The notes: generated by a model not told the origin, from the sequence alone. Shown: positions 1 through 63,790, counted from the first letter of the stretch. The stretch is DNA of 64,000 nt from Candidatus Acidiferrales bacterium (GCA_035533875.1 DATLSZ010000001.1:3614-67613), one strand, 5' to 3'. Made by a program: numbers and translations.

Positions 1-956
1 CGGACAATATAACAGGACCTGTTCCGGGTGATCCGAGAGCTATCTTTTATCCAGGACCAGATGCGATAAGACGTGTTGGTGAACCGCTTGTCGCTCCCGG
101 CAGATGGTACTACGCTGACGCTTATGTATACCAAAAAGGAAATTTAGCAACTACAGATCATGCGGCAGGTGCGAACGGACAGGCAGTACAACTTGAAGAT
201 AGACCGATACATGCTTCTGAATTAACGGTATTTACCGGTGAGCAGAATGAATCCCCCATACCATTTTTTCAACCGGCAAATGTAAATGGATCAGAATTCC
301 CACGGGATAGGCATGGTAATTTTGTTATTGAAAGAAGCCGAGCAACAGGCAATAGTCATAGAGAAAAAGAAGCCTTCCTTGTTTCTCGTGATGGAGAAGG
401 GTTAGTCAGGGATCATCCAGAAATTTTTGATACTATTGACCATGGTATGCGACTACTTGCGGAGCAGGGTGAAGAGGTAGATCTCGGTAATGGAATAAAA
501 ATGAGCAAACTAACGAGAAACGGCGGACAATCCCTTGTATACTTTTTAGATGTGGGTACGGAAAAATATGTAATCAGAACACATGCACCGAAAAGTCCTC
601 ATGACTCTGACCATTCTCAACCGTTTAGTAATGAAATGCAACAATACCACGCAGTTGCTGTTGACCTGAGACAAGACCTTGCTGATACTGGATTGGAAAC
701 GCCTGTCTTTATATTTGCCTCAGAAAGACTTTCTCTTACAAGACATGAGGCCGGAGACTATCCTACGAGAGAATATAAACTGCAAAAGGTAAGAAGATTT
801 TATCCTGCACTGTGGTCGTATATCAAAAATCAGATGTCAGATTTGTGGGATGGTGTGCAAATTGACACTATGGAACAAAATTTCATTCAAAAAAGTAATG
901 GAAATCTTGTATATGTAGATGCTTTTGCACGACCTCATCCTGTACGACGGAGGTAA
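1..956 (+). CDS. hypothetical protein, 5'-truncated by window edge; C-terminal half looks like a minimal protein-kinase-like fold (tentative)
   Basis: Frame 3 is open from nt 3 to the stop at 954-956; the ORF track only reports the internal Met at 447. Motifs read by eye: GGQSLVYFLDVGTEKYVIRTH (Gly-rich strand plus beta3-like), IDTMEQNF and LVYVDAF (catalytic-loop-like and DFG-like). Confidence 0.6.
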   Translation, partial: DNITGPVPGDPRAIFYPGPDAIRRVGEPLVAPGRWYYADAYVYQKGNLATTDHAAGANGQAVQLEDRPIHASELTVFTGEQNESPIPFFQPANVNGSEFPRDRHGNFVIERSRATGNSHREKEAFLVSRDGEGLVRDHPEIFDTIDHGMRLLAEQGEEVDLGNGIKMSKLTRNGGQSLVYFLDVGTEKYVIRTHAPKSPHDSDHSQPFSNEMQQYHAVAVDLRQDLADTGLETPVFIFASERLSLTRHEAGDYPTREYKLQKVRRFYPALWSYIKNQMSDLWDGVQIDTMEQNFIQKSNGNLVYVDAFARPHPVRRR

Positions 957-993
957 ACTAAAAACAACACAAGACAAACAGTCACACACCACT

Positions 994-1021
994 TTACCTA
1001 CTATGGGATTTATAGTATAAT
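994..1021 (+). promoter_or_regulatory. sigma70-type promoter, leaderless configuration
   Basis: TTACCT-16 nt-TATAAT; ATG 1031 lies 9 nt after the -10. Confidence 0.5.
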
Positions 1022-1030
1022 TCCTTCATT

Positions 1031-2329
1031 ATGCAATTGAGAAAAGAATTAACAGCTGAAGGCGCACAGCAGCCGAGAAGCGACAGTCTGTTACCAAAAT
1101 TTACCGATATCGGCAGAAATTTAGGAGCAAGAGTCATCCCTAGCCGAAAAATACATATTCGGCAAAGAGAAACAGGACTTCCTTCTTCTCCTCGTCCTGC
1201 AAAAATTACTACTGCTTTGTCCCCCATTCTTTCACCAGGAACAGGATCAGATAAAGCAGCAAGATCTCCAGGTGGATCTCGCAAACTTCATATTCGAGAA
1301 TCAACCGGTCAAAGTGCCGCAGATCCTCACGATGATAAAGCAGTTCCCGGTAATGGTATGCCCGAGCGGCAAGCTAAAGATACGGGCACTCAAAGAGCAG
1401 TTGTTGCAGCTGAACCGGGAAGACAAGCAGTAGTATCCGGTCCCGCTGCCAATGTCTCACCGCCTGAAGTGTCAAGATGGCCTGATAACCGTCGTACCGG
1501 GACTCCCGGTCCTGAGGTAAAGAAAAACGAAGTAACAGCCGGCTCTGCCCGTACAGATACGCCAGCTAGCGGAACGGCAGCTGTTGCAAAGCCTGCACTC
1601 CCTGTAGTAGATCATGATTCAGCGAGAGCTTACAGTGAATCACAAAAAGATCATTATGATATGACAACTGTTGACCGGGAACGGTCATTTGGAGATTACC
1701 TGTCTCTATTTACTCTCTCTGAAGAGGAACTGCGAGGAAGACGAGTTGTTGATTTCGGATCAGGTATGAGATTAGCATATGCAAAACAAGCTAAGGAACA
1801 AGGAATAACTGTTCTTTCGATTAACCCTGAGCTTCGTAGAAAAGGCAATCGTACCACGAGTGAAGAGGAACCTTTTACAGGAAGAATACCTTTGCTCAGG
1901 AGAGTAAGCGATTTGGCACCTACCGGGAAAATAAAAGATGCAATTACTAGTAGAATAAAACAAAGAGTTCCAGCTATAGCAGCAATTGGACAAATGCTGC
2001 CTCTTCGAAGTGGATGTGTTGATGTGGGTACTGACTTGTTAGCGATTTCTCTTTATTTACCTCTTGAACAAGATGCGTACACAAGATATTTTGGTGAAAT
2101 AGACAGAGTTATAAGCCCTGGCGGACAAATGAATATCGCCGTTTGGCTTGATGAAGAACCCCAAAGAAAAGAGCTTATCGAAAAGGAATTACAGAAATTA
2201 CAAAAAGAAGGATATACAATAACCACATCTCGACAGTTTCTTGAAGCTCACGATGCAACAATATTTAAAATCAGAAAACCATCCTCAGCAAGCATTGTAG
2301 CTAAGACCACTGCTGATACGACAAAGTAA
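1031..2329 (+). CDS. orphan protein: ~200-aa Pro/Arg/Ser-rich disordered N-terminus plus class I SAM-methyltransferase-like C-terminal domain
   Basis: ATG 1031 lies 9 nt after TATAAT (1016-1021). Motif I-like VVDFGSGMR, later ISPGGQMNI, and a C-terminal EGYTITT...IFKIRKP typical of MTase folds. Confidence 0.6.
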   Translation: MQLRKELTAEGAQQPRSDSLLPKFTDIGRNLGARVIPSRKIHIRQRETGLPSSPRPAKITTALSPILSPGTGSDKAARSPGGSRKLHIRESTGQSAADPHDDKAVPGNGMPERQAKDTGTQRAVVAAEPGRQAVVSGPAANVSPPEVSRWPDNRRTGTPGPEVKKNEVTAGSARTDTPASGTAAVAKPALPVVDHDSARAYSESQKDHYDMTTVDRERSFGDYLSLFTLSEEELRGRRVVDFGSGMRLAYAKQAKEQGITVLSINPELRRKGNRTTSEEEPFTGRIPLLRRVSDLAPTGKIKDAITSRIKQRVPAIAAIGQMLPLRSGCVDVGTDLLAISLYLPLEQDAYTRYFGEIDRVISPGGQMNIAVWLDEEPQRKELIEKELQKLQKEGYTITTSRQFLEAHDATIFKIRKPSSASIVAKTTADTTK

Positions 2330-2341
2330 GTTACTGTAAAT

Positions 2342-2710
2342 TTATGAACTCATGGGGATCTGCTCTTCGGTGAATTGCGAGTAGCGTTTGATGATATAAA
2401 ATCCTGAAAGACTTGGTAATAATTGCAGAATTGGTTTAATCTCTTGATAGATCATGCTGGCATCATTGCCGTAAATATAAAATGTGACACTCTCCTCATT
2501 CTGTCTTTCACAAAATTCATGTCCGTCATATCTGCCAACTCCTGATGCTTCTATTACCTCCCGTATGATATCATCCAAGTCAAAAACGGCGTCAAGCGCC
2601 TTTTTATTTTCTAGTTTGCCGATCGGAAATTGCAAACAGATAATCACTGCCTGCTCTTCCTGCCTGACTCCGACGGGCGAATTATCAAGTAATTCATCCG
2701 TAGGATCCAT
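2342..2710 (-). CDS. hypothetical small acidic protein
   Basis: 122-aa ORF converging on the previous gene, 12 nt apart; no recognisable motif. Confidence 0.5.
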   Translation of the reverse strand: MDPTDELLDNSPVGVRQEEQAVIICLQFPIGKLENKKALDAVFDLDDIIREVIEASGVGRYDGHEFCERQNEESVTFYIYGNDASMIYQEIKPILQLLPSLSGFYIIKRYSQFTEEQIPMSS

Positions 2711-2766
2711 ACTCTACTATTTATTCTATAGGTATTTTCACAAAATATGCAAGAGGAGAAAAGGGG

Positions 2767-3453
2767 CTACCACACTATCTTATGCTCGAATCCATTCTCA
2801 TTCGGGCTAGAAATTAGCTTGTCTTCTTTAGCTTTCTTCAACAACGTCATTACTTCCTCATCCGTCACCTGCCGAAAATCTTGATAGTACTGACCTATCG
2901 CCTCAAGTCTTTCTAGAGATTCCAAACAAATGATAGAATCAACCCAACTCCGCAACTCATTTCCGGTTTCTTTAGAACATACCGGAACAGCTAGGATGAT
3001 TTTTTTGGGATGGTGTTTTTTTATCGACAATAGTGCAGCCCGTGCGGTTACCCCTGTTGCGAGTCCATCATCGACAAGAATTACTGTTTTATTGGTCAAA
3101 AGAGGAAGTGAATCGCCATTTCTGTACAATTGCCTTCTCCTTTCAAGTTCTGTTACTTCTTGTTCTTTGATAGACCGCAGGATGTTATTAGGAATCTGTA
3201 GCATGTCAATCATGTCTGTATCCCAAAAAAGAACTCCATCTTCTGCAACGGCACCGATTCCCAGCTCAGGATTTCGTGGTGAACCTAACTTCCTGACAAT
3301 TACTACCTCAAGCGGCGTTTGAAGTAGCTGAGCAACCTGATATCCTACTGTTACCCCACCTCTCGGAAGTGCGACAACTATCGTACTGTTCTTCGCGTGT
3401 TTCACCAATTTCTCCGCGAGTTTTTTTCCTGCCTCAATTCTATCTTTGAACAT
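2767..3453 (-). CDS. predicted phosphoribosyltransferase (type I PRTase fold, COG1926-like)
   Basis: PRPP-binding loop VILVDDGLATGVT, N-terminal ALPRGGV, ~220-aa length typical of this family. Confidence 0.8.
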   Translation of the reverse strand: MFKDRIEAGKKLAEKLVKHAKNSTIVVALPRGGVTVGYQVAQLLQTPLEVVIVRKLGSPRNPELGIGAVAEDGVLFWDTDMIDMLQIPNNILRSIKEQEVTELERRRQLYRNGDSLPLLTNKTVILVDDGLATGVTARAALLSIKKHHPKKIILAVPVCSKETGNELRSWVDSIICLESLERLEAIGQYYQDFRQVTDEEVMTLLKKAKEDKLISSPNENGFEHKIVW

Positions 3454-3643
3454 AATTCCCCATCATCATAACCTGATAACACATGAGAATAATAAATAAT
3501 AAGTAAGAATATGATAAGAAACTAAAAATAAACTTTATATAAACTTTTATGGTGATATACTTATCATTGCATTGTAATAAGAACTCAACAGTGTTGTAAC
3601 GACATTTTTCTTTTGCTATGATATATTTTTAAAGAGATCCTTT

Positions 3644-4696
3644 ATGCATTCGAATACCAATGAACGAACAGCATCAAAAAGAATTCACTGGATAGATATT
3701 GCTCGTGGTATTGCAATAGTTCTTGTCATCTATGGTCATCTTTTCAGTACAGACCAGCAGCGTTATCTGATTTATGCATTCCACATGCCCCTCTTCTTTT
3801 TCATCTCCGGACTGGTATTCAAACCAATAACTGCCAAACCCTTACTGTTTATTGCTCTTAAATACTTCAAACAATTACTGATCCCTTATTATATTTTTGC
3901 GGTTCTCACATATATATTTGCGCTTATTTCACAAACTGCGAGCCTCAGTCTCAGCGGTACTGCCTATCAATTGTTCGGGATACTTTACGGAAGCGGGAGT
4001 GACGGTATGCTTGGATACAATGTGGTCTTATGGTTCCTTCCCTGTCTTTTTATTACCAAACTTACTCTTGCCGTAATAACACGAAAGATATCACAGACCC
4101 GGCACATTCTCCTTTTTCTTGTCGCAAGCGGAACGGTTGGCGCATTTCTTTCTTATGCAACTCCATGGCTGAAGCTGCCTTTTGGTTTTGAAATCGCGTT
4201 GAATTCACTTCCTTTCCTCGGCGCAGGATATCTTTTTATGACTCATAAAAGATTTCTAGGAAATTTTATAAAATACAAATTGCCGATTGCCGCAGCATCA
4301 TTGATCCTTACGTCTTGTATCGCAACGGTAGATTATCAGCTTTCAGGTCATCAGGTTGATCTCCGGATCAACAGAATCGATATCGTTCCTCTTTTTTATC
4401 TTGGCGCTTTTGGCGGAATCAGCACGTGGATGGCAGTCAGTCAACTGATTGCCAAAAGTGTATTTTTGGAATATATCGGCAAACACTCACTCGTCATCTT
4501 TGCCTGGCACAATATTCTACTCGTTGATCTTCGGGAGATCGTTGGTTCACTCTTGACGCAAGATGTACTCAACTCAATTCAACCTTTTATGTCGACAATT
4601 TATACTGGCATGGCAATAAGTATTATTCTTTTCAGCAGAAAAGTATTCGTCAAACTTAAAGTAGCCTATCGCTATGTACCTTTTATAAAGCAATAA
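3644..4696 (+). CDS. membrane acyltransferase, acyltransferase-3 family
   Basis: About 10 predicted TM helices; N-terminal IHWIDIARGIAIVLVIYGHL is the family signature. Confidence 0.8.
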   Translation: MHSNTNERTASKRIHWIDIARGIAIVLVIYGHLFSTDQQRYLIYAFHMPLFFFISGLVFKPITAKPLLFIALKYFKQLLIPYYIFAVLTYIFALISQTASLSLSGTAYQLFGILYGSGSDGMLGYNVVLWFLPCLFITKLTLAVITRKISQTRHILLFLVASGTVGAFLSYATPWLKLPFGFEIALNSLPFLGAGYLFMTHKRFLGNFIKYKLPIAAASLILTSCIATVDYQLSGHQVDLRINRIDIVPLFYLGAFGGISTWMAVSQLIAKSVFLEYIGKHSLVIFAWHNILLVDLREIVGSLLTQDVLNSIQPFMSTIYTGMAISIILFSRKVFVKLKVAYRYVPFIKQ

Positions 4697-4719
4697 ACTC
4701 CCCAATCGAGGAGTTTATT
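4692..4719. terminator. bidirectional hairpin terminator between convergent genes
   Basis: Perfect 10-bp stem AATAAACTCC/GGAGTTTATT with an 8-nt loop; includes the stop codon at 4694-4696. Confidence 0.6.
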
Positions 4720-4745
4720 GCGACAACTAATCTAGTCCCCTAACA

Positions 4746-5222
4746 TTACTGTCCGGTTGGAGCAGATTGGCCACCGGTTCTACCGCCTCTCATCATAAAT
4801 GCACCATTGCCGATCGTGACATCCAATGCAGTGACGCTGCCGTCTGAATTGGTTGTACCAATAGCTGTAACGGTAATCCCGGATTTCAGGTCCGAAACAG
4901 AACCGCTTGTTGCTTTATTGATCTTGGTTTGGCTGGTAAGATTGACGATCTTACTGCTGCCATCAGTTAATTTGACAGTAACACTATCGCTGCCGGTACT
5001 GATGATCTGACCTCTCACCGGTGTCATTCCTTGAGCTCCTCCCGGTCCTCCAAATGTTCGTTGGCCGCCTTGTCCGTTAAAGCTCCGGTAAAACTGACCG
5101 CCAGCACTACTGGCAAATCCTGCGCGCAGCTGAGTCTTTTGATATAATGTACCGCCGTAGAACGCGCCTGCGCCAACAACGATAACTAAAATAAGTACAT
5201 AGAGTGGTTTAATTGGCTTCAT
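4746..5222 (-). CDS. small exported Gly-rich protein (DUF5666-like beta domain, tentative)
   Basis: N-terminal TM/signal KPLYVLILVIVVGAGAF; perfect SD GGAGGTG (5228-5234, minus) 5 nt upstream of ATG 5222. The track start at 5240 is a TTG inside the SD. Confidence 0.7.
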   Translation of the reverse strand: MKPIKPLYVLILVIVVGAGAFYGGTLYQKTQLRAGFASSAGGQFYRSFNGQGGQRTFGGPGGAQGMTPVRGQIISTGSDSVTVKLTDGSSKIVNLTSQTKINKATSGSVSDLKSGITVTAIGTTNSDGSVTALDVTIGNGAFMMRGGRTGGQSAPTGQ

Positions 5223-5260
5223 AGTCTCACCTCCTCTCAAATAATTAAAATTGAAACGAG

Positions 5261-6481
5261 TTATTCGTATCTCAGTGCTTCAATCGGCTCAAGTCCGGCT
5301 GCTTTTTGTGCCGGATACCAGCCGAACAATACTCCGATTCCTGCCGAAACAACAAATGCAACCAGAACCGATTGCGGTGATAAGACAAAAGGAGAACTCG
5401 TTGCTGCAGAAATTCCATACGATAGAACAATTCCCAAAATTACTCCGATTATGCCGCCAGCGAAGGTAAGGATAATTGATTCTGTGAGAAATTGGGTAAT
5501 CACCGTCTTCTTCTTCGCGCCCAAAGCTTTCCTCAAACCAATTTCTCTTGTCCGTTCAGTGACGGTAACTAGCATGATATTCATAATGCCGATGCCGCCG
5601 ACAAGGAGTGAAATTGCAGCAATTCCTGACAGCAAGGTTGTAAACGTACCCGTAGCAGACGAAGCAGCATTCAAAATATCCTGCTGGGAAAAAATAGAAA
5701 AGTCTGCTTGCGTCGGATCAGAAAGTTTGTGCCTGCTCAACAATACATAACCGACTTGATTCTCGGCATCTGTCATCACGTCTTGGCTTTTTGCCTCAAG
5801 AGCAATTGAGTTAAGATACGATTGACCAAAGACTTGTGACTGTGCGGTAGTGAGCGGGATATAAGCGATGGCATCCTGATTGGCAAATCCGGTCCCGCCT
5901 TTGGAAACCGTTATGCCGACGATGCGGAATGAAATTCCTTTGATACGGATTGATTGTCCTATGGGGTCGGGATTATTTGGGAATAGATCGGATACGACAG
6001 TCGGTCCGATGACAGCAACTTTTGCCGCACCGTTATTATCTTGTTCTGTAATGAAATTGCCTGTCTGTATGGTAACTTTATGTACTTCAGAATATGTTGC
6101 TGTTGATCCTATTACTTGGATGTTACTATTGTTTCTCCCTGCGGTTACCTGTTCTCTCCCTTCTACCTCGGGAGAAACAGCTTGGATTGTCGTTATCTGC
6201 GGTGAAGTCTGGATTGCCTTTGCGTCGTCATTGGTAAGGGTTGTTGCGCCGCCGGCTGCACCACGAACGCCACCACTGCTTTGCGAGCCCGGACTCACGG
6301 TAAGTAAATTTGCACCCAGTGATTGTATCGAGTTTTGGACAGATTGCTGTGTCGCTTGTCCCAAAGAAACAAGCGCGATAACGCTGCCGATCCCGATGAC
6401 AATACCCAGAATTGCGAGACCGGTCCGCATCTTATTTACCGTTAATGTCTGTAGACTTTCAATAATTGTTTCTGTATCCAT
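5261..6481 (-). CDS. ABC transporter permease, MacB/FtsX type
   Basis: N-terminal TM, ~230-aa extracytoplasmic domain, C-terminal FtsX-like 3-TM bundle (GIGIMNIMLVTVTERTREIGLRKALGA). Confidence 0.9.
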   Translation of the reverse strand: MDTETIIESLQTLTVNKMRTGLAILGIVIGIGSVIALVSLGQATQQSVQNSIQSLGANLLTVSPGSQSSGGVRGAAGGATTLTNDDAKAIQTSPQITTIQAVSPEVEGREQVTAGRNNSNIQVIGSTATYSEVHKVTIQTGNFITEQDNNGAAKVAVIGPTVVSDLFPNNPDPIGQSIRIKGISFRIVGITVSKGGTGFANQDAIAYIPLTTAQSQVFGQSYLNSIALEAKSQDVMTDAENQVGYVLLSRHKLSDPTQADFSIFSQQDILNAASSATGTFTTLLSGIAAISLLVGGIGIMNIMLVTVTERTREIGLRKALGAKKKTVITQFLTESIILTFAGGIIGVILGIVLSYGISAATSSPFVLSPQSVLVAFVVSAGIGVLFGWYPAQKAAGLEPIEALRYE

Positions 6482-6482
6482 A

Positions 6483-6560
6483 GTTCGGAATACTCAGATA
6501 ACTCAGAATTTCAGAGTGTCTGACTTTCAGAATTTCTGAAGTTCTGATTACTCTGAGTTT
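6483..6560 (-). repeat. tandem-unit hairpin element, family 1 (CTCAGAA/TTCTGAG words)
   Basis: Arms 6492-6515 (ACTCAGATAACTCAGAATTTCAGA) and 6535-6558 match as an inverted repeat at 20 of 24 positions (hand count). The sense strand ends TTCCGAACT-ATG of the permease gene. Confidence 0.8.
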
Positions 6561-7257
6561 TTGCTTTTGTTGGATTTTTATTCTCTCGATCGCTCACAAT
6601 TTTCCCGTCTCGTACCGTAATAATACGTTTGGCATGCGCTGCTATATCCGGTTCATGAGTGATCATCACGACTGTATGGCCTTTTTCATTGATATCCTGA
6701 AAAATTGCCATCACTTCCTCGGCTTGTGCAGAAGCGATATTCCCCGTCGGCTCATCCGCAAGGAGCAGCGCGGGATCCATAGTAAGTCCTCGTGCGATCG
6801 CTACTCGCTGCTGCTGCCCGCCAGAGATTTGATTGGATGTATGATTGAGCCGTTCACTAAGCCCCACCATCTGCAGATATTTAACCGCGCGTTCATGCCG
6901 TTCTTCAAGTGGAATGCCCGCATACCGCATCGGTAACATAACGTTTTGCAAAACAGTAGTCCTAGGCAATAGATTAAATGCCTGAAAAATAAATCCAATT
7001 TTTTGGTTACGGATATCGGCCAACTCGTCATCTGTCAGATTTCCAACATTCTCTCCGTCAAGGATATACATCCCGCTTGACGGGGTATCCAAACATCCGA
7101 GTAGATGCATCAATGTCGATTTGCCGCTTCCTGAAGGGCCCATGATTGCGACAAATTCACCTTTCTTTATAGAAAATGAAACATCATCAAGTGCGACTGT
7201 CTCGCCCGCTGCGGTACTATAAATTTTGGTCAGATGTGATACGTCGATAATATTCAT
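6511..7257 (-). CDS. ABC transporter ATP-binding protein (MacB/LolD-like)
   Basis: Walker [10 protein letters not shown], signature [13 protein letters not shown], Walker B LLLADEPT. The last ~15 codons are encoded by the hairpin repeat at 6483-6560. Confidence 0.95.
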
Positions 7258-7337
7258 GACTCATAACTTCTCAGAAATTCAGTATTTTAAACTGTAAAAA
7301 GTAACTTTTAATTTTGCATTTTGAACTTTTAACTTTT
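7258..7337 (-). repeat. degenerate low-complexity spacer with weak hairpin potential
   Basis: TCAGAAATTCAG word plus AAAAGT/ACTTTT repeats; fills the HlyD-stop to ATPase-start spacer. Weak member at best. Confidence 0.3.
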
Positions 7338-8687
7338 TTACCCGCCGCGCCGGAAAAATACAGCTCCGCCTCCACCACCCCTGCCGCCGGCACCGCTGAA
7401 GGGTGATGCTGTTGAGGAAGAACCACTTGTTGTCGTACTTGTACCAATGACAACTGTATCTCCTTCACTGATACCTGATGAAATTTCTGTATTGGTGTCA
7501 TCAGAGATACCTGTTGTCACAGGAACTTCGGTAAGTTGTCCATTTTTGAGAACCCGCACATATGATGAGCCGTTGGATGTTTGGACAGCTGCTGTTGGAA
7601 CAGTAATGACATTGTCCGCTCTTGCTGTTTGTATATTCACTGATGCGGTCATACCGGATTTGATTTCAGATGGCGGCGAAACAAGGTCAATATATACATT
7701 ATATGTCACAACACCAGACGAGGATGTGCCGATACTATCAACATTAACGACCTTACCGACAAACGTCTGGTTAGGAAACGCATCCAGGGTAACCGTCGCG
7801 TTTTGTCCGACTTTTATACTTGGCAGATCAACTTCATTTACCTGTGCAACAACGGAAAGATTGGAGAAATTCCCGATAACTAATACGGTAGAACTGCTGG
7901 AGTTAGAAGATGAACTTGAGCTGGTGCTTGAACTGTTTGAGGAACTTGACGACGAAGAATTGGAATTATTATTGGATGCAGTTACGCTGCTGCCGGCACT
8001 CACTGATAGATTTGCAACTGTTCCCCCAACAGGCGCGGTAACAGTAGCATTTTGCGTAGCTTGATAAGAAAGTGATGCACTTTGCAAAGCAGCTTGCGCT
8101 TGACTGATCACACCTGCCTGATTTTTATAATCAGCCTCTGCTTGTAACCAGTCGGCGTTTTCCTCAATATATACCGGATCTTGCTTTTGCAGATCGGTAG
8201 GATTCGGGACACCTTTATCATTGATGAATGTCTGGTTTGCTTTAAATAGTGCAGACTGCAACGAATTCATCTTCGATTGAGCAGTATTCAGAGTATTTTG
8301 CGCAGTTAGATAACTGGCATACGCGGTTGCTTTTTCTTCAGGAGTTGCTGTAGATTTCACCGAAAATAATTTTTGTCCCTCAGTTACCGTATCGCCATTC
8401 TTAACGTAGACATCCTGAACAATACCTGTTGCTGGTGATGTCACTGATGTTTGTGAGTCCGCGCTAACATTACCGCTTTCCGAAACTGTTGCGATAATAC
8501 TTGCCCGTTGTGCCGTCGCGGTTTGGTATTGCGACGAAGTACTCTTTTGTCCAAATAATCGTGCCCAGGCAAACCAAATCACAACGATAATGACAATAAT
8601 TATCAAGCCTTTTTTCCACAATGATAATCCCAATAACCGGTCGAGAAGAATTGGCTTTTTTGCCTTGGGTAGATTCGAAACACTCAT
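7338..8687 (-). CDS. efflux adaptor, HlyD/MacA-type membrane fusion protein
   Basis: N-terminal TM, coiled-coil hairpin, beta-barrel C-terminus, upstream of the ABC pair. ATG 8687 lies 9 nt after TATAAT (8697-8702, minus). Contains a Ser/Asn low-complexity insert. Confidence 0.85.
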   Translation of the reverse strand: MSVSNLPKAKKPILLDRLLGLSLWKKGLIIIVIIVVIWFAWARLFGQKSTSSQYQTATAQRASIIATVSESGNVSADSQTSVTSPATGIVQDVYVKNGDTVTEGQKLFSVKSTATPEEKATAYASYLTAQNTLNTAQSKMNSLQSALFKANQTFINDKGVPNPTDLQKQDPVYIEENADWLQAEADYKNQAGVISQAQAALQSASLSYQATQNATVTAPVGGTVANLSVSAGSSVTASNNNSNSSSSSSSNSSSTSSSSSSNSSSSTVLVIGNFSNLSVVAQVNEVDLPSIKVGQNATVTLDAFPNQTFVGKVVNVDSIGTSSSGVVTYNVYIDLVSPPSEIKSGMTASVNIQTARADNVITVPTAAVQTSNGSSYVRVLKNGQLTEVPVTTGISDDTNTEISSGISEGDTVVIGTSTTTSGSSSTASPFSGAGGRGGGGGAVFFRRGG

Positions 8688-10817: not shown

Positions 10818-11816
10818 TTAGCTTACTAGAGGAAACGTAAGGGTAAAGGTGGTCCCCTTATGATAGACACTGTCAACTTCTATCGATCCGTTATGTGCCG
10901 TGACAATTTTCTTCACTATGGATAGTCCCAACCCATGTCCGTCTGCTTGAGAACGGGACTTATCCGCCCGGTAAAACCTGTCAAAAATATGTTCCAGATC
11001 AGTTGGTGCAATCCCTACTCCTTCATCCGTTACAAGTATAGTAACGGACCGCTTTTTGCTCATTGATGCGATAGTCACTTTTGTCTTTTCTGGACTGTAT
11101 TTTATGGCATTATCAAACAAATTCACAAAAACTTCAATGAGACTATTTTTATCACCTTTTACTTTCCCACTGACTTGTGAAAGAGTAAATATTATTTGTT
11201 TCTTCTTTGCGAGAGATGAAACTTTTTTATATGCGGATTGGATAACTTCCTGCATTGAAACGGTATCATTATAGATAACATTTTTCTTGGATACATGTGC
11301 CAACTGCAATAAACTATTTGCAAGCTCTTGTAATTTACCTAACTCTTCTAAATTACTTGCAATTACCTTTCGAGCACCTTTATCACTGAGACGTTTTTCA
11401 AGGAGACTTGCTTCCATTTCCGCACGAAGTGTCGCAATCGGAGTCCTCAGTTCATGGGATGCGTCTGAAATAAACTGATTTTGTTCATCCACCATTTGCT
11501 GAATAGGTTTGAGCGTTCTTCCCGCGAGAAAATATCCGGCTCCACCGGCAATAACCAAAATTATGCCGTTGATGATAACAAGCGCAATCTTCAGTCTGTT
11601 TGTGATTCCCTGTAACTGATCAAGGGTAAAAATTGCTTCAGGCGGTGTCGGAAGCGACAGTTCAGTTGCTTGTGACTGCAAAAAATGAATTCGTACGATG
11701 ACCCTCTGGATTTCAAGCGTTGATGCCTGATAAAAAGCGAAACTAAACGTGACGCTGACCAGCATGATAATTGCGAGATACCAGGCAGTTAATTTGAGGC
11801 GCGCGGATTGAAACAT
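10818..11816 (-). CDS. sensor histidine kinase
   Basis: Two TM helices, H-box SHELRTPIATL, N/G boxes (NLFDNAIKYS, DEGVGI, GHGLGLSIV). Start moved to ATG 11816 because the track's N-terminal extension reads into the repeat. Confidence 0.9.
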   Translation of the reverse strand: MFQSARLKLTAWYLAIIMLVSVTFSFAFYQASTLEIQRVIVRIHFLQSQATELSLPTPPEAIFTLDQLQGITNRLKIALVIINGIILVIAGGAGYFLAGRTLKPIQQMVDEQNQFISDASHELRTPIATLRAEMEASLLEKRLSDKGARKVIASNLEELGKLQELANSLLQLAHVSKKNVIYNDTVSMQEVIQSAYKKVSSLAKKKQIIFTLSQVSGKVKGDKNSLIEVFVNLFDNAIKYSPEKTKVTIASMSKKRSVTILVTDEGVGIAPTDLEHIFDRFYRADKSRSQADGHGLGLSIVKKIVTAHNGSIEVDSVYHKGTTFTLTFPLVS

Positions 11817-11922
11817 ATTAATAAATCTCAAAACGCAAATCGCATAACTCAAAAATAAAGATTTGAGATGTTAGATGAAGATTTGACATTTGATTTTTGA
11901 CATTTGAGATTTGCATAATAAT
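11817..11922 (-). repeat. tandem-unit hairpin element, family 2 (AAATCTCAAA/TTTGAGATTT words)
   Basis: Fills the whole RR-stop to HK-start spacer. The sense strand ends TTTTGAGATTTATTAAT-ATG. Confidence 0.75.
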
Positions 11923-12591
11923 TTATTCTCTTATCGTATATCCTCTACCGCGGATTGTGTGAATCAATGACTCTTCTCCTTTGACATCTATCTTATCACG
12001 AAGATGTTTGACATGCACTTCAATAGTACTTGGCAGGACATCCGAATCATAATTCCAGACATGCGCGATGATCTGTTCTTTATTCAGAACAGTATTCTTA
12101 TTCCGCAGGAGGTATTCCAAAAGAGAAAATTCTTTCGCGGATAATTCGACTATTTTGTCGCCGCGTTTAACGGTGAATGTCTTCGGATCAAGACTTAAAT
12201 TTTTGATACTGAGAACCGGATCGTTTGCCTGGACGGGACGGCGGACAAGCGCTCGGATCCTGGCAAATAGTTCTTCAAACGAGAATGGTTTCACCATATA
12301 ATCATCAGCCCCGACATCAAGCCCTGTTACTTTATCGGTAATTTGCCCTCTGGCGGTGAGCATCATCACTGGCGTATGAATTCCTTCCGCGCGGATCCGT
12401 TTGCAGATTTCAATACCATCCATGCCAGGAAGCATCACGTCTAATATAATCAAACTGAACTCTTCGCCTATCGCAAAATCCAATCCGTCTTTGCCATTAT
12501 TCACAACATCAACAGCATATTTCTGGAGTTCCAACGCGCGTTTCATGGCGTGCGCTAATTTTACTTCATCTTCAACAAGGAGTATTCTCAT
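11923..12591 (-). CDS. OmpR-family response regulator
   Basis: Receiver domain (ILLVEDE, LIILDVMLPGMDG, KPF) plus winged-helix C-terminus (VHVKHLRDKI, TIRGRGY). Confidence 0.95.
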   Translation of the reverse strand: MRILLVEDEVKLAHAMKRALELQKYAVDVVNNGKDGLDFAIGEEFSLIILDVMLPGMDGIEICKRIRAEGIHTPVMMLTARGQITDKVTGLDVGADDYMVKPFSFEELFARIRALVRRPVQANDPVLSIKNLSLDPKTFTVKRGDKIVELSAKEFSLLEYLLRNKNTVLNKEQIIAHVWNYDSDVLPSTIEVHVKHLRDKIDVKGEESLIHTIRGRGYTIRE

Positions 12592-12600
12592 ATGCAAATG

Positions 12601-16489: not shown

Positions 16490-16606
16490 GTGTCAGATAA
16501 AAAAAGCTCAACTAATAAACCACAACCAAGAACTTCTGTTCAGAAAGTTATAAAACCAGGAGCGTTTACCATAGAAAAGAAAAGAGGTCATGCTAAGTCG
16601 AAATAA
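16490..16606 (+). CDS. unannotated small ORF, 38-aa lysine-rich peptide (paralog of previous)
   Basis: GTG start 5 nt after GAGGTGA (16478-16484): (M)SDKKSSTNKPQPRTSVQKVIKPGAFTIEKKRGHAKSK. The stop is 5 nt before ATG 16612. Confidence 0.5.
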   Translation: MSDKKSSTNKPQPRTSVQKVIKPGAFTIEKKRGHAKSK

Positions 16607-16611
16607 CTACT

Positions 16612-17172
16612 ATGGCGGAAGTTTTTATAACTATTTTTAACTGGTTTACAAAACCGGATGTAAATTTTTGGACAATGATCATCGGTATTTTTACCGCTGC
16701 ACTATGGATAACAGCTAAACATCAATTAAAAGCATTATCAAAGACTTCTCGCGCTGACTTTATACACAGGTTCAAGAATGACTTCTTTACACATGCAACT
16801 AGACAGATAATTAAACTAATTGATCAAAATAAGTTAAAATTTGATTCAAAAACAGGAGATTTTAATAATGACATTTCAAGTTATGATGTTGACGATTTAA
16901 TATTGGGACATTTTGAGGATTTAGGAATATTTGAAAAAAAAGGATATATAGATATTGAAGAAATTTACGAATTGTTTGATTACTATATAGAAAACACTTG
17001 GGAAAATTCTGCAATACAAGAATATCTAGAAAAGCTGTCGAATGGTAGTGACATATACGATAATTTCAAGTATTTATATTACAAATGCAAATCATATGGA
17101 GAAGCAAAAATGAATCGAGAATTTATATTTCTATGGAGAATAAAATGGAAGCTTAAAGAATTCTGTTTATAG
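16612..17172 (+). CDS. hypothetical membrane-anchored protein (one N-terminal TM)
   Basis: 186-aa ORF in a visibly AT-richer islet; TM FWTMIIGIFTAALWI. Its 3' end overlaps trhO by 6 nt, convergent. Confidence 0.6.
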   Translation: MAEVFITIFNWFTKPDVNFWTMIIGIFTAALWITAKHQLKALSKTSRADFIHRFKNDFFTHATRQIIKLIDQNKLKFDSKTGDFNNDISSYDVDDLILGHFEDLGIFEKKGYIDIEEIYELFDYYIENTWENSAIQEYLEKLSNGSDIYDNFKYLYYKCKSYGEAKMNREFIFLWRIKWKLKEFCL

Positions 17173-25166: not shown

Positions 25167-25195
25167 TTGACGTCTCTGCACTTTTGGCGCATGAT
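25167..25195 (+). promoter_or_regulatory. sigma70-type promoter of split transketolase operon
   Basis: TTGACG-17 nt-CATGAT; in-frame GTG 25203 lies 7 nt after the -10. Confidence 0.45.
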
Positions 25196-26066
25196 TAAAA
25201 TAGTGCTGGAAGAATTACACGAAGACAAATTAATAGACCTCGAAAAAAAGGCAGAAGAAGCCCGAGAGCTGATCATAAAATCGCTTCTTGAAGCAGGATC
25301 GGGACATTCAGCAGGTCCGCTTGGCATGGCGGATATCTTTACTGCGTTTTATTTTCATATTCTCAAACACGATCCCAAAAATCCCGATTGGCCTGAGCGC
25401 GACCGGCTGGTACTTTCCAACGGCCATATCTGCCCGATCCGCTATGTTTCAATGGCGCAGGCAGGCTACTTCCCTATTGAGGAATTGAAAACGTTACGGA
25501 AAATAAACTCAAGATTGCAAGGTCATCCGCACCGGACCGCTTTACCGGGACTCGAAACGACTTCCGGACCGCTCGGCGAAGGACTCGGACAGGCAATCGG
25601 CATCGCACTTGCAGCCAAACTTGATAAAAAAAACTATTATACCTATGTCATCACCGGTGATGGAGAGCTGGACGAAGGCAATATCTGGGAATCAGTGATG
25701 TTTGCCGGCAAAAATAAAATGAACAATATCATCATGACTATCGACCGCAACAATATCCAAATCGACGGTTTCACCGAAAATGTCATGCCGCTTGAACCGT
25801 TGAAAGAAAAGTTTGAGGCATTTGGCTGGCACGTTCTTGAAGTTGACGGCAACAATATCAAAGCATATGTTACCGTGATCAAGGAAGCGCACGCGATTTA
25901 TGAGAAACCAACGGTGATCATCGCCCATACCATCCCGGGACAGGGTGTTGATTTTATGGAAAAGGATTTCCATTGGCATGGCAAGCCGCCGAATGCGGAA
26001 GAAGCAAAAAAAGCGCTTGATGAATTACGCACGCTCAAGGGACAGATTGAGAGTGAACACAAATAA
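25191..26066 (+). CDS. transketolase, N-terminal (TPP-binding) subunit of split enzyme
   Basis: GSGHSAGPLGMADI, GPLGEGLGQAIG, GDGELDEGNIWE. In-frame GTG 25203, 7 nt after CATGAT, is an alternative leaderless start. Confidence 0.9.
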   Translation: MIKIVLEELHEDKLIDLEKKAEEARELIIKSLLEAGSGHSAGPLGMADIFTAFYFHILKHDPKNPDWPERDRLVLSNGHICPIRYVSMAQAGYFPIEELKTLRKINSRLQGHPHRTALPGLETTSGPLGEGLGQAIGIALAAKLDKKNYYTYVITGDGELDEGNIWESVMFAGKNKMNNIIMTIDRNNIQIDGFTENVMPLEPLKEKFEAFGWHVLEVDGNNIKAYVTVIKEAHAIYEKPTVIIAHTIPGQGVDFMEKDFHWHGKPPNAEEAKKALDELRTLKGQIESEHK

Positions 26067-26073
26067 AATATAA

Positions 26074-26174
26074 GCGGGTGGCACGGGCGGAGGGCTCCCA
26101 GCAGCGCGCAGTTCGTTCGCAGCAAAGCAAGACTAGAATGAGCACTGATGGGAGGAGCCCGGGACAGGACCCGC
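26074..26174 (+). other. GC-rich structured spacer between split transketolase genes (candidate RNA element)
   Basis: Outer stem GCGGGT (26074-26079)/ACCCGC (26169-26174); inner stem GGGCTCC (26092-26098)/GGAGCCC (26154-26160). Composition is strikingly GC-richer than the flanks. Confidence 0.35.
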
Positions 26175-26189
26175 AAAAACTAAAAAATT

Positions 26190-27179
26190 ATGTTGAATCC
26201 TAACTTAAAACTAAATACCAAACTCTTCGACAAAGATGTCGCAACCGCGCCAACTCGGGAAGGTTTTGGCACGGGACTCGTGGCGCTGGGTGAAATCAAT
26301 CCGAGAGTCGTAGCATTGGCCGCGGACCTGACTGAGTCAACATACGCACATAAATTTGCTGAGAAATTCCCCGATAGATTTTTCCAAATTGGTATCGGCG
26401 AGCAGAATATGGCATCAATCGCAGCAGGGCTTGCGGAAAGTGGTAAAGTCGCTTTCATCTCTTCATACGCAACGTTCTCACCGGGCAAAAATTGGGAAAC
26501 GCTGAGAACCACCGCAGTCTACAACGAAGCAAATGTCAAAATTGCAGGCCATCACTCAGGCATCATGACCGGACCTGACGGCGCCACCCATCAGGCAACA
26601 GAGGACATCGCCATCACCCGCTGCTGGCCAAAGATGCATGTCTATGTCCCTTGCGATGCTATCGAAGCACGCAAAGCAACCATCGCGTCTGTTGATATCT
26701 CCACCCCAGTCTATCTCCGCTATACCAGAGATAAAACACCAGTCATTACTACCGAAGAGACGCCATTCAAAGTCGGCAAACTGCAAACGTTTTGGGTGAA
26801 CGAAAATCCCAAAGTCACCATCTTTGCGACCGGCTACATGCTGTATTATGCACTCGTTGCCGCAAAAGAATTGGAGGAAGAAAAAATCCCTGTCCTCGTC
26901 GTCAACGCAGCGACGATAAAACCGCTTGATGAAGAAGGAATTCTTAACGCAACTCGTGATTCACAAGCAGTTGTTACGGTCGAAGACCATCAAGTCGAAG
27001 GCGGTATGGGATCTGCTATTGCTGAACTACTTGCAAAGACCACTCCACTTCCGATAGAATTTATAGGGTTGCAAAATACATTTGCCGAGTCAGGCAAGCC
27101 TGCCGAGCTTGTCGAAAAATACGGCATGGGAGTGAAAGATATCAAACTGGCTGTAAAAAGAGTTATGAGAAGAAAGTAA
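26190..27179 (+). CDS. transketolase, C-terminal (pyrimidine-binding) subunit of split enzyme
   Basis: FQIGIGEQNMASIAAGLA, GPDGATHQATEDIA, VTVEDHQVEGGMGSA. Confidence 0.9.
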   Translation: MLNPNLKLNTKLFDKDVATAPTREGFGTGLVALGEINPRVVALAADLTESTYAHKFAEKFPDRFFQIGIGEQNMASIAAGLAESGKVAFISSYATFSPGKNWETLRTTAVYNEANVKIAGHHSGIMTGPDGATHQATEDIAITRCWPKMHVYVPCDAIEARKATIASVDISTPVYLRYTRDKTPVITTEETPFKVGKLQTFWVNENPKVTIFATGYMLYYALVAAKELEEEKIPVLVVNAATIKPLDEEGILNATRDSQAVVTVEDHQVEGGMGSAIAELLAKTTPLPIEFIGLQNTFAESGKPAELVEKYGMGVKDIKLAVKRVMRRK

Positions 27180-27180
27180 A

Positions 27181-27268
27181 AATTTCAGAATACTCAGAAG
27201 ACTCAGACATCAGATAACCTGAATGTCAGACGTTCTGATTCTCCGAGTTATTCCGAGTTTTCCGAACT
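27181..27268 (+). repeat. tandem-unit hairpin element, family 1 (archetype)
   Basis: 5' arm TTCAGAA-T-ACTCAGAA-G-ACTCAGAC-A-TCAGA; 3' arm TCTGAT-TCTCCGAG-TTATTCCGAG-TTTTCCGAACT directly followed by ATG 27269. Confidence 0.85.
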
Positions 27269-30732: not shown

Positions 30733-30856
30733 TCAGAACACTCAGATTGTCGGATAATCGGTAATTCTGAGGTTAAGTAAACAAACTCTGAATCTCTGAT
30801 CTATCTGGAATTCTGTTTTCTGATTTTCCGAGTATTCCGAGTCTTCTGAAGATATA
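30733..30856 (+). repeat. tandem-unit hairpin element, family 1, in a convergent gene gap
   Basis: TCAGAACACTCAGA ... CTCTGAATCTCTGAT ... TTCTGATTTTCCGAGTATTCCGAGTCTTCTGAAG; fills the aldolase-stop to pfkB-stop gap. The 5' arm is shorter than the 3' arm. Confidence 0.7.
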
Positions 30857-37859: not shown

Positions 37860-37892
37860 AACAATTTCCACCATTGCGAGCAAAATATATTT

Positions 37893-37960
37893 TTTCAGAA
37901 GACTCAGAAAACTCAGACGTCAGAAAATCTGGATTTCTGAATATTCCGAGTTTTCCGAAA
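37893..37960 (+). repeat. tandem-unit hairpin element, family 1, in a divergent promoter region
   Basis: TTCAGAAGACTCAGAAAACTCAGACGTCAGAAAATC-TGG-ATTTCTGAATATTCCGAGTTTTCCGAAA; shares GAGTTTTCCGAA with 27255-27266. Confidence 0.85.
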
Positions 37961-37983
37961 TTTTAGAACCTTAATCTCAATTA

Positions 37984-47322: not shown

Positions 47323-47523
47323 CGTTATGTTTTGAGAATAATGTGCTTAGTGATTTCTTATAAGCGAGGAAAAAGAATTTTCGCCAGGACGAATGCCTCT
47401 TTCACATAGACTAGCATTCTGATGGTGCTCGGAGAGCGGAGGTACAAATTAAACTAAAACTCTAAAGGCGGGTCCAAGAAAAAAATCATTCCGAGCGATA
47501 AATAAGTTTGATGCTTGATCAAA

Positions 47524-48204
47524 TCATTTCCCAAACCGTCTTTCTCTTCGCTCGTATTCCGCAAGCGCGTTGTCGAATTCTTTCTCATCAAAATCCGGCC
47601 AGAACGTATCGGTGAAATATAATTCGCTATAAACACTCTGCCATGGTAGATAACCGCTCAACCGTTGAGATCCACCGGTACGGATCACGAGATCCGGATC
47701 AGGCTGGTGCTTGGTGTATAAATACTGCGAAATCAATTCTTCCGTAATATCATTCTTATCGATCTTATCCGTAACAATTTGTTGCACGGCTTGCACGATC
47801 TCCTCCCTGCCTCCGTAGTTGAGCGCGATATTGACAGTGATCTTGGTATTGTCCTTGGATTCCTCAATAACCTTTGCTATCCCCTTTTGGATGTCTTCTG
47901 GAAAAGCTATAAGATTTCCCAGAACCTGGATCTTCCCGCCTTTTTTGATCAATTTTTTCAAGAGTCCTCCCCGCAGAGCAGTACGGAAAAGATCCATCAG
48001 ATAACCGACCTCTTTCTGATCCCTGCGCCAATTTTCCGTGGAGAACGCCCAGAACGTGATATACGGTATATCATGATCCTGCGCGCGCTGGACGATCTTT
48101 TCAATTTGCTGGTATCCTTTCCGATGTCCGGCAAAAGCCGGAAGTTTTTTCTCCCTCGCCCAGCGGCGATTTCCATCCATAATAAGAGCAATGTGATTTA
48201 TCAT
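47524..48204 (-). CDS. uppS: isoprenyl transferase (undecaprenyl diphosphate synthase)
   Basis: IALIMDGNRRWA, FSTENWRR, RTGGSQRLS(G/N). Confidence 0.95.
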   Translation of the reverse strand: MINHIALIMDGNRRWAREKKLPAFAGHRKGYQQIEKIVQRAQDHDIPYITFWAFSTENWRRDQKEVGYLMDLFRTALRGGLLKKLIKKGGKIQVLGNLIAFPEDIQKGIAKVIEESKDNTKITVNIALNYGGREEIVQAVQQIVTDKIDKNDITEELISQYLYTKHQPDPDLVIRTGGSQRLSGYLPWQSVYSELYFTDTFWPDFDEKEFDNALAEYERRERRFGK

Positions 48205-48292
48205 ATTAATCTAAAATCTCAAAAATCAAATGTCAAATCTACATCTCAAATATAAAATCTTTTAAAATTTTGAGATTTGCGATTTGAAATTG
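48205..48292 (-). repeat. tandem-unit hairpin element, family 2
   Basis: ATCTCAAA (48243-48250) pairs with TTTGAGAT (48270-48277), and TCAAATC (48232-48238) with GATTTGA (48281-48287). The sense strand ends GAGATTTTAGATTAAT-ATG of uppS. One arm encodes the idi C-terminal tail. Confidence 0.75.
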
Positions 48293-61635: not shown

Positions 61636-61733
61636 ACTATTCCCGGAAAACTCAGAACGCTCAGAGAACCAGAATATCTGAAATTCAAATTATCAGATAT
61701 TCTTTATACTCCGAATTTTCTGAGTGTTCCAAA
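61636..61733 (-). repeat. tandem-unit hairpin element, family 1
   Basis: GGAAAACTCAGAACGCTCAGAGAACCAGAATATCTGA...TCAGATATTCTTTATACTCCGAATTTTCTGAGTGTTCC; fills the ybaB-stop to prs-start spacer. Confidence 0.8.
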
Positions 61734-63650: not shown

Positions 63651-63790
63651 AATTCAGAAAACTCAGTATAATCAGAATGCCGGAAAATCAGTATACCAGA
63701 AATTCGGAATATCAGAAAAGATATTTTCCGGTTCACTGGCTCTCTGAATTTCCGGATCTCTGAGTTTTCCGAGTTTTCTGAAATCACTAC
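63651..63790 (-). repeat. tandem-unit hairpin element, family 1 (longest copy)
   Basis: About 65-nt arms of TCAGAA/TCGGAA words and their complements. The sense strand ends GAGTTTTCTGAATT-ATG of dnaX and begins right after the ybeY stop. Confidence 0.8.

Follow-up and report, generated by a model that had tools for sequence, protein, structure and literature searches.

Tandem-word hairpin elements at operon stop/start junctions are probable ORF-less relatives of intervening-sequence cassettes

Known since the 1990s, the intervening sequences (IVSs) of bacterial 23S rRNA genes and the associated S23p/PF05635 proteins have been assigned neither a function nor a means of spreading. In their classical form, with an S23p/PF05635 open reading frame (ORF), they occur in Coxiella, Leptospira, Brucella and Xanthomonas, where they are sited in helix 25 or helix 45 of the 23S rRNA. 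The PF05635 protein (S23p or IVP) is a pentameric four-helix bundle and a relative of Avd, the accessory protein of diversity-generating retroelements, and its genes usually appear in annotations as orphan "four helix bundle proteins". The IVS of the Coxiella 23S rRNA forms a 28-bp stem from terminal inverted repeats and has tandem heptameric repeats (GACAGAT) of strain-variable number just upstream of the S23p ORF, with RNase III cleaving at the first repeat (PMC4990558). The rRNA genes of the candidate phyla radiation hold 23S_rRNA_IVP ORFs as well as many short ORF-less insertions (PMC11270868), and an IVP gene is wedged between cmr3 and cmr2 in the cyanobacterium Pleurocapsa (PMC3936711). 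Here we investigated two operon spacers in a 64,000-nucleotide stretch of DNA (the window; GC content 42.6%) from an assembly labelled Candidatus Acidiferrales bacterium (GCA_035533875.1 DATLSZ010000001.1:3614-67613). Element A separates the genes of a response regulator (RR) and a histidine kinase (HK), and element B lies at the junction of idi and uppS. Our comparisons identify them as copies of a dispersed, insertion-polymorphic, hairpin-forming element that is found at stop/start junctions and is akin to the arms of a PF05635 cassette. We think it fairly likely that the two hairpins are ORF-less derivatives of IVS-type cassettes in mRNA spacers, resembling miniature inverted-repeat transposable elements (MITEs).

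The two elements, which we assign to a family designated family 2, and the arms of A are located as follows.

11817-11922, minus strand: element A, the whole RR-HK spacer of 106 nt; a truncated ORF-less copy of family 2 whose top strand is the gene strand
11860-11914, minus strand: 5' arm of A as read on the gene strand; it comprises about eight 7-nt words, among them the family core TCT(T/A)CATCT, from Tandem Repeats Finder (TRF) and a 41-copy alignment
11823-11853, minus strand: 3' arm of A on the gene strand, tttgagt tatgcga tttgcgt tttgaga ttt, then attaat-ATG, from inverted-repeat pairs and the minimum-free-energy structure
48205-48299, plus strand: element B, a family-2 copy whose top strand runs antisense to both genes, idi and uppS, and whose end adjoins the uppS ATG (48204)

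Read on the gene strand, A begins gcAAATCTCAAAtgtcaaaaatcaaatgtcaaatc and ends TTTGAGttatGCGATTTGCgtTTTGAGATTTattaatATG. Its upstream part follows the RR stop as TAA attattat gcaaatc tcaaatg tcaaaaa tcaaatg tcaaatc ttcatct aacatc tcaaatc tttattt, and the remainder is ttgagtt atgcgat ttgcgtt ttgagat ttattaat ATG. The layout is that of a run of 7-nt words and then a shorter run of complements, which stops 6 nt short of the HK ATG and places a GAGA, within the 3' arm, 11-14 nt upstream of it. TRF detected period-7 arrays at 11823-11844 and 11881-11913 in A and at 48214-48258 and 48269-48291 in B, and an inverted-repeat finder paired 11823-11853 with 11882-11912 and 48208-48224 with 48268-48284. 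These arrays and inverted arms bear out the original prediction that both spacers consist of word arrays followed by inverted arrays. Its remark that both end on the gene strand in GAGATTT..ATTAAT directly before an ATG (11816 and 48204) also agrees with the sequence, which in B ends tttTTGAGATTTtagattaatATG or, more briefly, ...tttttgagattttagattaatATG, with the uppS ATG at 48204. The idi-uppS spacer had been taken to span 48205-48292; the true spacer is 48205-48261, and 48262-48292 is the stop codon of idi (48262-48264) with its final codons (...NFKSQISKF*, NNSNFKSQISKF*). B therefore overlaps the idi stop and the last ~10 codons, and its outer arm is coding.

The resemblance between A and B goes beyond base composition. 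The word TTTGAGATTT occurs six times in the window against 0.68 expected, a count that none of 100 shuffles reached, and four of the six occurrences fall within A and B. The two elements have in common an exact 18-mer, AAATCAAATGTCAAATCT, on the minus strand in A and on the plus strand in B, and their best alignment sets the gene strand of A against the antisense strand of B. Similarity above the AT-rich background, proposed earlier as a check on the relationship, is thus present, since both the 18-mer and the word counts exceed the shuffles. A metagenome scan with a 14-mer common to A, B and a relative, L113, plus TTTGAG returned more than 119 stretches, and about 25 of the first 80 listed were clearly homologous beyond the pattern itself. 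Furthermore, an nhmmer profile built from 13 metagenomic copies, with the window sequences excluded, matched A at 11823-11912 on the minus strand (60 bits, E 3e-16) and B at 48208-48299 on the plus strand (48 bits, E 1.7e-12). The same profile found 112 distinct elements in 81 loci, and several contigs carry more than one copy (five within 4.2 kb on L229; four each on L148, L219 and L024). Family 2 as delimited by this profile is multi-copy and widespread in metagenomic contigs.

Family-2 elements are about 115-125 nt long, with arms of 7-nt word arrays around a conserved non-periodic core. In the alignment of 41 copies, the left-arm consensus is ...CAAATGTCAAATCT-ACATCT-TAAATCTCAAA (nAATCTCAAATCTCAAATGTCAAATGTCAAATCT-ACATCT-TAAATCTnAAAnCTTTT) and the right-arm consensus after the loop is ...AGATTTGAG-TTGTAG-TTTTGAGATTTGCGATTTGAGATTT (TTTnAGATTTGAG-TTGTAG-TTTTGAGnTTTGCGnTTTGAGTTTTGAGATTT). 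Both the order of the word variants and the non-periodic CTACA...TGTAG core are common to A, B, the L113 copy and more than 100 others. Relative to this consensus, A and B lack the same inner right-arm segment of about 20 nt, and this shared internal deletion suggests descent from an already shortened master within the lineage. Judged by their sequences, A and B are homologous, degraded, ORF-less copies of one dispersed element, inserted in opposite orientations relative to their genes. The original prediction had invoked a common mechanism rather than one mobile sequence. The shared architecture holds, and its layout of words, inverted copy and start codon indeed recurs with other vocabularies in the window and in related genomes, but A and B themselves belong to one dispersed family (E 3e-16 and, rounded, 2e-12). 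Their independent generation is contradicted by the shared non-periodic word order and by the absence of A from close relatives.

This absence emerged when HK homologues at graded identity were placed on their contigs and the RR/HK junctions were compared. L111, whose HK is 94% identical, has the junction TAAtATG (AGAGAATAATATGTTTCAA / AGAGAATAAtATGTTTCAA) and no hairpin, and L112 (81%) and L114/L115 (74%) have TAGtATG (GGGAGTAGTATG / GGGAGTAGtATGTTTCAA), with a 1-nt spacer and likewise no hairpin. The window carries 105 extra nt between the same RR stop and HK start, so that A is an insertion absent from close relatives. L113 (HK 76%) has a family-2 hairpin of about 128 nt and of the same vocabulary at the same RR/HK junction, and its orientation, opposite to that of A, implies an independent insertion. 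As for other hairpins of the window, the 75-nt H8, between the genes of 3-hydroxy-3-methylglutaryl-CoA (HMG-CoA) reductase and synthase, is missing from L117, the 86% relative, whose junction there is an empty TAGtATG. In L113 and L114, the spacers orthologous to those of H1 and H2 lack any counterpart from the respective word family, and the L114 ABC-MacB spacer (16545-16637) holds a different palindrome, CGTCATCCTGAAC...GTCCGGAATGACG. Insertion polymorphism of the kind that marks MITEs was therefore found, with empty junctions in L111, L112, L114 and L117. At idi-uppS, the 92% relative L116 retains just the ATG-proximal ~25 nt (cttgatttttgagatttgagattattATG), a solo three-word array, which would fit either deletion of the remaining element or an intermediate state. 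The idi-uppS spacer of L117 (9917-10000) holds three short GC-rich hairpins. The spacers showed no hypervariability: in nine contigs of the same strain recovered from other samples, six covering B and three covering A, they are identical.

The preference for stop/start junctions extends to the family as a whole. Both flanks could be scored for 50 copies, of which 42 are placed between co-directional genes (27 with the top strand antisense, 15 sense), and in 24 of the 39 contexts scored for it the downstream ATG follows the end of the element by 0-8 nt, so that the ATG-proximal position noted originally for A and B turns out to be a family-wide rule. Read in gene orientation, the preceding ORF usually ends at or within the first arm, its stop codon often falling inside the arm. 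No target-site duplication was detected, the longest word shared by the two flanks averaging 3.65 nt versus 3.75 nt between the flanks of different copies; a TA/TAA repeat is possible at A but is not general. It seems that, in this clade, stop/start junctions collect hairpin elements generally.

We then turned to the link with PF05635. One family-2 element on L219 is split exactly at its loop, with model positions 5-59 matching at 6173-6227 and positions 60-124 at 6566-6630, and the loop holds a 135-aa ORF (6222-6626) that matches PF05635 (23S_rRNA_IVP) with an E-value of 3e-21. On L086, an unrelated PF05635 gene (950-1297, E 3e-32) lies between arrays of GGTGGTA and TACCACC (GGTCGGTGGTAGGTGG... 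/ ...CCGACTACTAACCACCAACC). A tblastn search for PF05635 over all loci examined, with 1346 ORFs as controls, gave ten genes, and all ten had flank inverted-repeat scores of 21-35 (controls: median 10, 95th percentile 15), at or above about the 98.5th percentile of the control ORFs. Most of these flanks are, as judged by eye, tandem-word arrays, each with its own vocabulary. The arms of such cassettes are in turn matched by window hairpins (A at z 24.6, B at z 18.5, and H2 at z 6.4 to the arms of the L219 cassette at 5021-5347), so that at least two window vocabularies, those of A/B and H2, correspond to arms of PF05635 cassettes. Since the PF05635 genes are all framed by inverted repeats, mostly word arrays of their own vocabulary, a shared type of element accounts better for the "common mechanism" proposed for the different vocabularies. 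L219 (JGI Ga0209542_10029757, 1-7942) has three PF05635 cassettes in all (4415-4762, 5021-5347 and 6222-6626), each of a different vocabulary, and also two complete ORF-less family-2 hairpins (2182-2294 and 7472-7577).

The likeness to IVSs comprises the stem-forming terminal inverted repeats and the tandem heptamers in the stem region by the ORF, as with GACAGAT in Coxiella (PMC4990558). It also comprises the coexistence of one full-length form, with the PF05635 gene in its loop, and ORF-less short forms, in a sporadic, selfish-looking distribution (PMC4990558, PMC11270868). A and B differ in that they lie between protein-coding genes, in mRNA operon spacers and not in rRNA, and family 2 differs in being multi-copy and dispersed, with several copies per contig. 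Because they are located outside rRNA, they are not classical IVSs; we regard them as IVS-like palindromic elements outside rRNA with MITE-like ORF-less derivatives, distinct also from repetitive extragenic palindromic (REP) sequences and from MITEs of the DDE type.

Folding of the family agrees with this picture. The 41 aligned copies, mostly full-length, have a mean folding energy of -32.6 kcal/mol (mean z -5.1), with L169 at -49.3. For full-length copies the values range from -30 to -49 kcal/mol, and their stems, of about 40 bp, are interrupted by roughly one mismatch per 7-nt word. A consensus hairpin of 39 pairs, derived by hand from the 41 copies, has 88.6% of its cells paired, versus 14-58% in slid registers. 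The long stem from terminal inverted repeats that characterizes IVSs is present in this consensus, and the window copies are weaker. The top strand folds better in 31 of the 41 copies because of conserved T-G wobbles, an asymmetry that may simply be inherited.

Several points weigh against the derivation of these hairpins from IVS-type cassettes. Taken alone, the window copies fold modestly (A, z -2.24; B, z -1.59), which gives the hairpins foreseen in the original prediction no more than modest support from the two spacers themselves. Column shuffles of the consensus give 87.7% paired cells, close to the real value, covariation is weak, and RNAalifold returned no consensus for the 41 copies. 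Since shuffled columns pair nearly equally well, the pairing is kept by sequence conservation and not demonstrably by selection for RNA structure. Just one of the 112 family-2 copies carries PF05635, and A and B are without it; PF05635 could therefore be a passenger that entered one hairpin loop. No gene for PF05635, a transposase, a REP-associated tyrosine transposase (RAYT) or RNase III was found in the window or in an 8-kb extension of it, and we know of no enzymatic or mobility function of PF05635. The taxonomic labels do not agree either. The closest labelled relatives of UppS and HK are mostly metagenome-assembled genomes of Patescibacteria/Microgenomates (Levy-, Collier-, Shapiro-, Woese- and Gottesmanbacteria), and an identical HK protein carries the conflicting NCBI label "Candidatus Acidoferrales". 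Because of this label, we treat a Patescibacteria-like origin of the window as probable, not certain.

If the hairpins do derive from IVS-type cassettes, they would stand to PF05635 cassettes as MITEs stand to insertion sequences. Co-transcribed in an operon mRNA, the stem would be a plausible substrate of RNase III, by analogy with rRNA IVSs, and/or a coupling device. A ribosome ending the upstream ORF would melt the first arm and expose the ATG-proximal GAGA and the ATG of the second arm. Such opening of the stem would keep the translational coupling of the original TAAtATG junction, which would explain why surviving insertions pile up at stop/start junctions. Slippage probably remodels the arms after insertion. 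The elements would be primarily selfish and not a conserved regulator of RR/HK or idi/uppS.

A more specific possibility, which we put forward with considerable doubt, is that each vocabulary is one half of a specificity pair, the PF05635 protein binding the five to seven heptamer words beside its own gene, about one word per protomer. Equally speculative is the extension that the scattered ORF-less hairpins would be sites recognized in trans, for mobilization, RNA processing or protection. Such a pairing, if true, would be the first function for the IVS protein family and would explain the spread of IVS-type elements both in rRNA and in the mRNA spacers of Patescibacteria.

The most serious alternative, though in our judgement a rather unlikely one, is that the hairpins are REP/REPIN- or MITE-like repeats moved in trans by a transposase (for example, of the IS200/IS605 or RAYT type), with PF05635 as unrelated cargo. 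Much of what is described above speaks for it: the hairpins are short, palindromic, extragenic and multi-copy, occur in both orientations and show presence/absence polymorphism, one strand folds better in 31 of 41 copies via T-G wobbles, PF05635 is present in one copy of 112, and target-site duplications are missing as in IS200/IS605 and REP. The conserved CTACA...TGTAG core recalls the GTAG motif of REP sequences, which themselves are short extragenic palindromes of many copies in both orientations, with hairpin doublets, no target-site duplication and a GTAG-like tetranucleotide (PMC3116915). However, REP sequences are GC-rich, whereas the family-2 arms are AT-rich tandem 7-nt words, and the conserved GTAG expected at the 5' foot of a short palindrome was not found there, TGTAG/CTACA being internal to the long arms. 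Annotation of the window and the flanks showed neither a transposase nor a RAYT; the associated gene encodes a PF05635 four-helix-bundle protein. Moreover, ten of ten PF05635 genes are framed by inverted repeats, mostly of different vocabularies, and a chance passenger would not predict that.

Selection as a cis-regulatory RNA hairpin, which would process, stabilize, attenuate or couple and thereby set the RR:HK and idi:uppS ratios, we consider improbable. Such hairpins have precedents in the REP stabilizers of malEFG and in the Correia elements cleaved by RNase III, and A and B do lie between cistrons, directly before an ATG, with hairpin potential, and with a terminal word that, whichever way the element is turned, provides GAGA about 11-14 nt upstream of the ATG. 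A regulator, however, should also be present at the RR/HK junction of the relatives whose HKs are 94%, 81% and 74% identical, where a 1-nt stop/start spacer is found instead. The orientation to the genes is variable (27 antisense against 15 sense), the same sequence fronts unrelated genes in many genomes, covariation is essentially absent, and canonical GC-rich terminators occur elsewhere in the organism. Selection on the gene-strand RNA was rejected by folding both strands of 12 window hairpins, as the gene strand was not consistently favoured. A terminator scan found none in A or B and a canonical GC-rich terminator at 10222-10193 on the minus strand; given such ordinary terminators elsewhere in the organism, a terminator reading of the hairpins was also rejected.

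An origin in situ, with slippage expanding 7-nt words and template switching making the inverted copy independently at each locus, is very unlikely. It would account for the strong period-7 structure, for heptamer arrays that occur even within coding regions (recR) with units changing in concert within a genome, for the solo three-word array of L116 at idi-uppS and for the variable heptamer number among Coxiella IVS alleles. It fails on the long non-periodic order of word variants and the non-repetitive core common to A, B, the L113 copy and over 100 further ones, and slippage cannot explain the origin of A and B in view of profile E-values of 1e-12 to 1e-32. Chance similarity of AT-rich, low-complexity spacers is excluded by word counts and an 18-mer far above shuffles, and promoter or operator arrays, suggested by one sigma-70-like match in B (TTGACA-17-TAGATT), are hardly credible either, since promoter-like matches do not exceed shuffles and the TTGACA word, viewed relative to the gene, changes strand between A and B.

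Other repeat families share single traits with family 2. Correia/CREE, RUP, BOX and ERIC elements are likewise non-autonomous, with inverted-repeat ends, insertion polymorphism and a location in operon spacers, and Correia transcripts are cleaved by RNase III; family 2 differs in having no target-site duplication, in its heptamer-periodic arms and in that no DDE-transposase partner was found. Mycobacterial interspersed repetitive units (MIRUs), direct tandem repeats of 46-101 bp with an ORF overlapping the neighbouring stop and start codons that were first found in the mycobacterial senX3-regX3 two-component operon, resemble the present elements in their intercistronic position within operons, including a two-component system, and in keeping stop/start adjacency, the mini-ORF of A ending TAAtATG. 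MIRUs, in contrast, are not hairpins, and the unit here is 7 nt in an inverted organization, so that A and B do not qualify as MIRUs. The mini-ORF in question has 32 codons (11916-11818, minus strand; MQISNVKNQMSNLHLTSQIFIFELCDLRFEIY*) and begins 6 nt past the RR stop; its TAA and the tATG of HK recreate the TAAtATG junction of an empty site. A MIRU-like relay ORF was found in A alone, B and most other copies being without a mini-ORF, and because B has none, that of A is probably due to chance. Cyanobacterial short tandemly repeated repetitive (STRR) sequences are tandem heptanucleotide intergenic arrays with genome-specific heptamers (Mazel 1990; Elhai 2008). Family 2 has tandem intergenic heptamer arrays in common with them and differs in lineage and in the heptamers themselves. 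The Rickettsia palindromic elements are palindromic repeats of reduced genomes that are translatable and lie in frame within genes. The B arm, which encodes the last ~10 residues of idi, is comparable, although here the overlap is confined to ORF ends. TIGR arrays were rejected, as the period-7 word layout, with no spacer structure, does not fit them.

The genes that flank the two elements were assigned by Pfam as follows.

11923-12597, minus strand: OmpR-type response regulator gene (RR; Response_reg and Trans_reg_C), directly upstream of A, with its stop TAA at 11925-11923
10818-11816, minus strand: histidine kinase gene (HK; HisKA and HATPase_c), a called gene in L087-L089, directly downstream of A, with its ATG at 11816-11814
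48262-48804, minus strand: idi, NUDIX-type isopentenyl-diphosphate isomerase (NUDIX; a called gene), its 3' end encoded by the B arm
47524-48204, minus strand: uppS, undecaprenyl diphosphate synthase (Prenyltransf, E 5e-83), downstream of B

The idi and uppS genes belong to a mevalonate-pathway operon. Metagenome contigs from ENA, JGI and Logan with 99.95-100% identity to the window encode identical copies of its proteins. Some relatives have a single fused idi-uppS protein of 391-396 aa that combines NUDIX and Prenyltransf (P0202, P0203, P0205, P0207, P0214, P0215 and P0240), so that the junction bearing element B is a fusion point elsewhere. The relatives L116 (92%) and L117 (86%) share with the window a conserved non-coding stretch of about 200 nt downstream of uppS (47323-47523). 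Long-range complementarity links its ends (tcgctcggaatga / tcattcgtcctggcga), it has no Rfam match, and a similar motif is present in the thiolase-OB spacer of L117; it could be an undescribed non-coding RNA or another repeat family. The halves of a split transketolase (25167-26066 and 26190-27179) are separated by a GC-rich, internally complementary spacer of 123 nt (26067-26189), which is dissimilar to the AT-rich word hairpins. No tRNA or tmRNA was found in a scan of the window, and Rfam gave no match at gathering score anywhere in it, to rRNA or to any other family, with chance-level matches alone around A and B at E-values up to 1.

Further word hairpins of the same architecture lie elsewhere in the window.

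7258-7345, minus strand: H2, with AAAAGTTA words, between membrane fusion protein (MFP) and ATP-binding cassette (ABC) genes; absent in L113 and L114
54275-54352, minus strand: H8, with GATTTAAG words, between the HMG-CoA reductase and synthase genes (-21.8 kcal/mol, z -3.7)
27180-27268, plus strand: H4, representative of the TCAGAA/TTCCGAG word family
6478-6552, 30733-30856, 37890-37972, 61636-61733 and 63651-63785: other TCAGAA/TTCCGAG copies

The TCAGAA/TTCCGAG hairpins consist of 8-9-nt words (ACTCAGAA / TTCCGAGT), detect each other by nhmmer and are probably the "family 1" of the original prediction. One copy of this type lies outside the window (L123, 6634-6750), and in four of the six window hairpins the better-folding strand is antisense to the flanking genes. 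The other window vocabularies behave as separate families. About 6.6 kb to the left of the window, L238 has an H8-type array (1772-1810; AATCTTAAATCCTTAATCTTTAATCCTAAATCT) that overlaps the end of one of two co-directional genes. A heptamer array, AAACTCA repeated three to four times, lies inside the coding sequence of recR (58979-59587, minus strand) at 59077-59108 and encodes KKLKTQNSNLKIS. This segment is collinear in five orthologues with a genome-specific heptamer (AAAGTTA in L008, AAATCTC in L016), and hence points to concerted change of tandem units under protein constraint. Five IMG/VR contigs (L093, L102, L103, L104 and L106) carry word hairpins with AAATCTCAAA outer stems and a different interior, for example L104 8436-8524, and none of the five matches the family-2 profile. 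The scan of viral contigs by the outer-stem pattern gave 21 loci, mostly by chance, with about five apparent word hairpins of other families and no match to the family-2 profile. A detector of periodicity plus inverted repeats, applied to 80 UppS loci, was insensitive and missed known cases.

In the literature searched, we found no IVS-type multi-copy family in mRNA spacers, an absence that is no proof of novelty, and neither word-array arms as a general property of PF05635 genes nor heptamer hairpins in Patescibacteria were described there. The evidence points to an IVS type of element outside rRNA that proliferates as ORF-less hairpins at operon stop/start junctions, in reduced Patescibacteria-like genomes where most PF05635 gene copies bring their own tandem-word arms. 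For genome annotation, such elements extend or truncate ORF calls, as at the C-terminus of idi and in the L113 HK homologue, which is called 24 codons too long, and they could pass for regulatory RNAs; they are also usable as insertion-polymorphism strain markers in uncultured lineages. The function of the IVS protein itself becomes testable, through the binding of the protein to its words, the cleavage of operon mRNA by RNase III and hairpin-mediated translational coupling.

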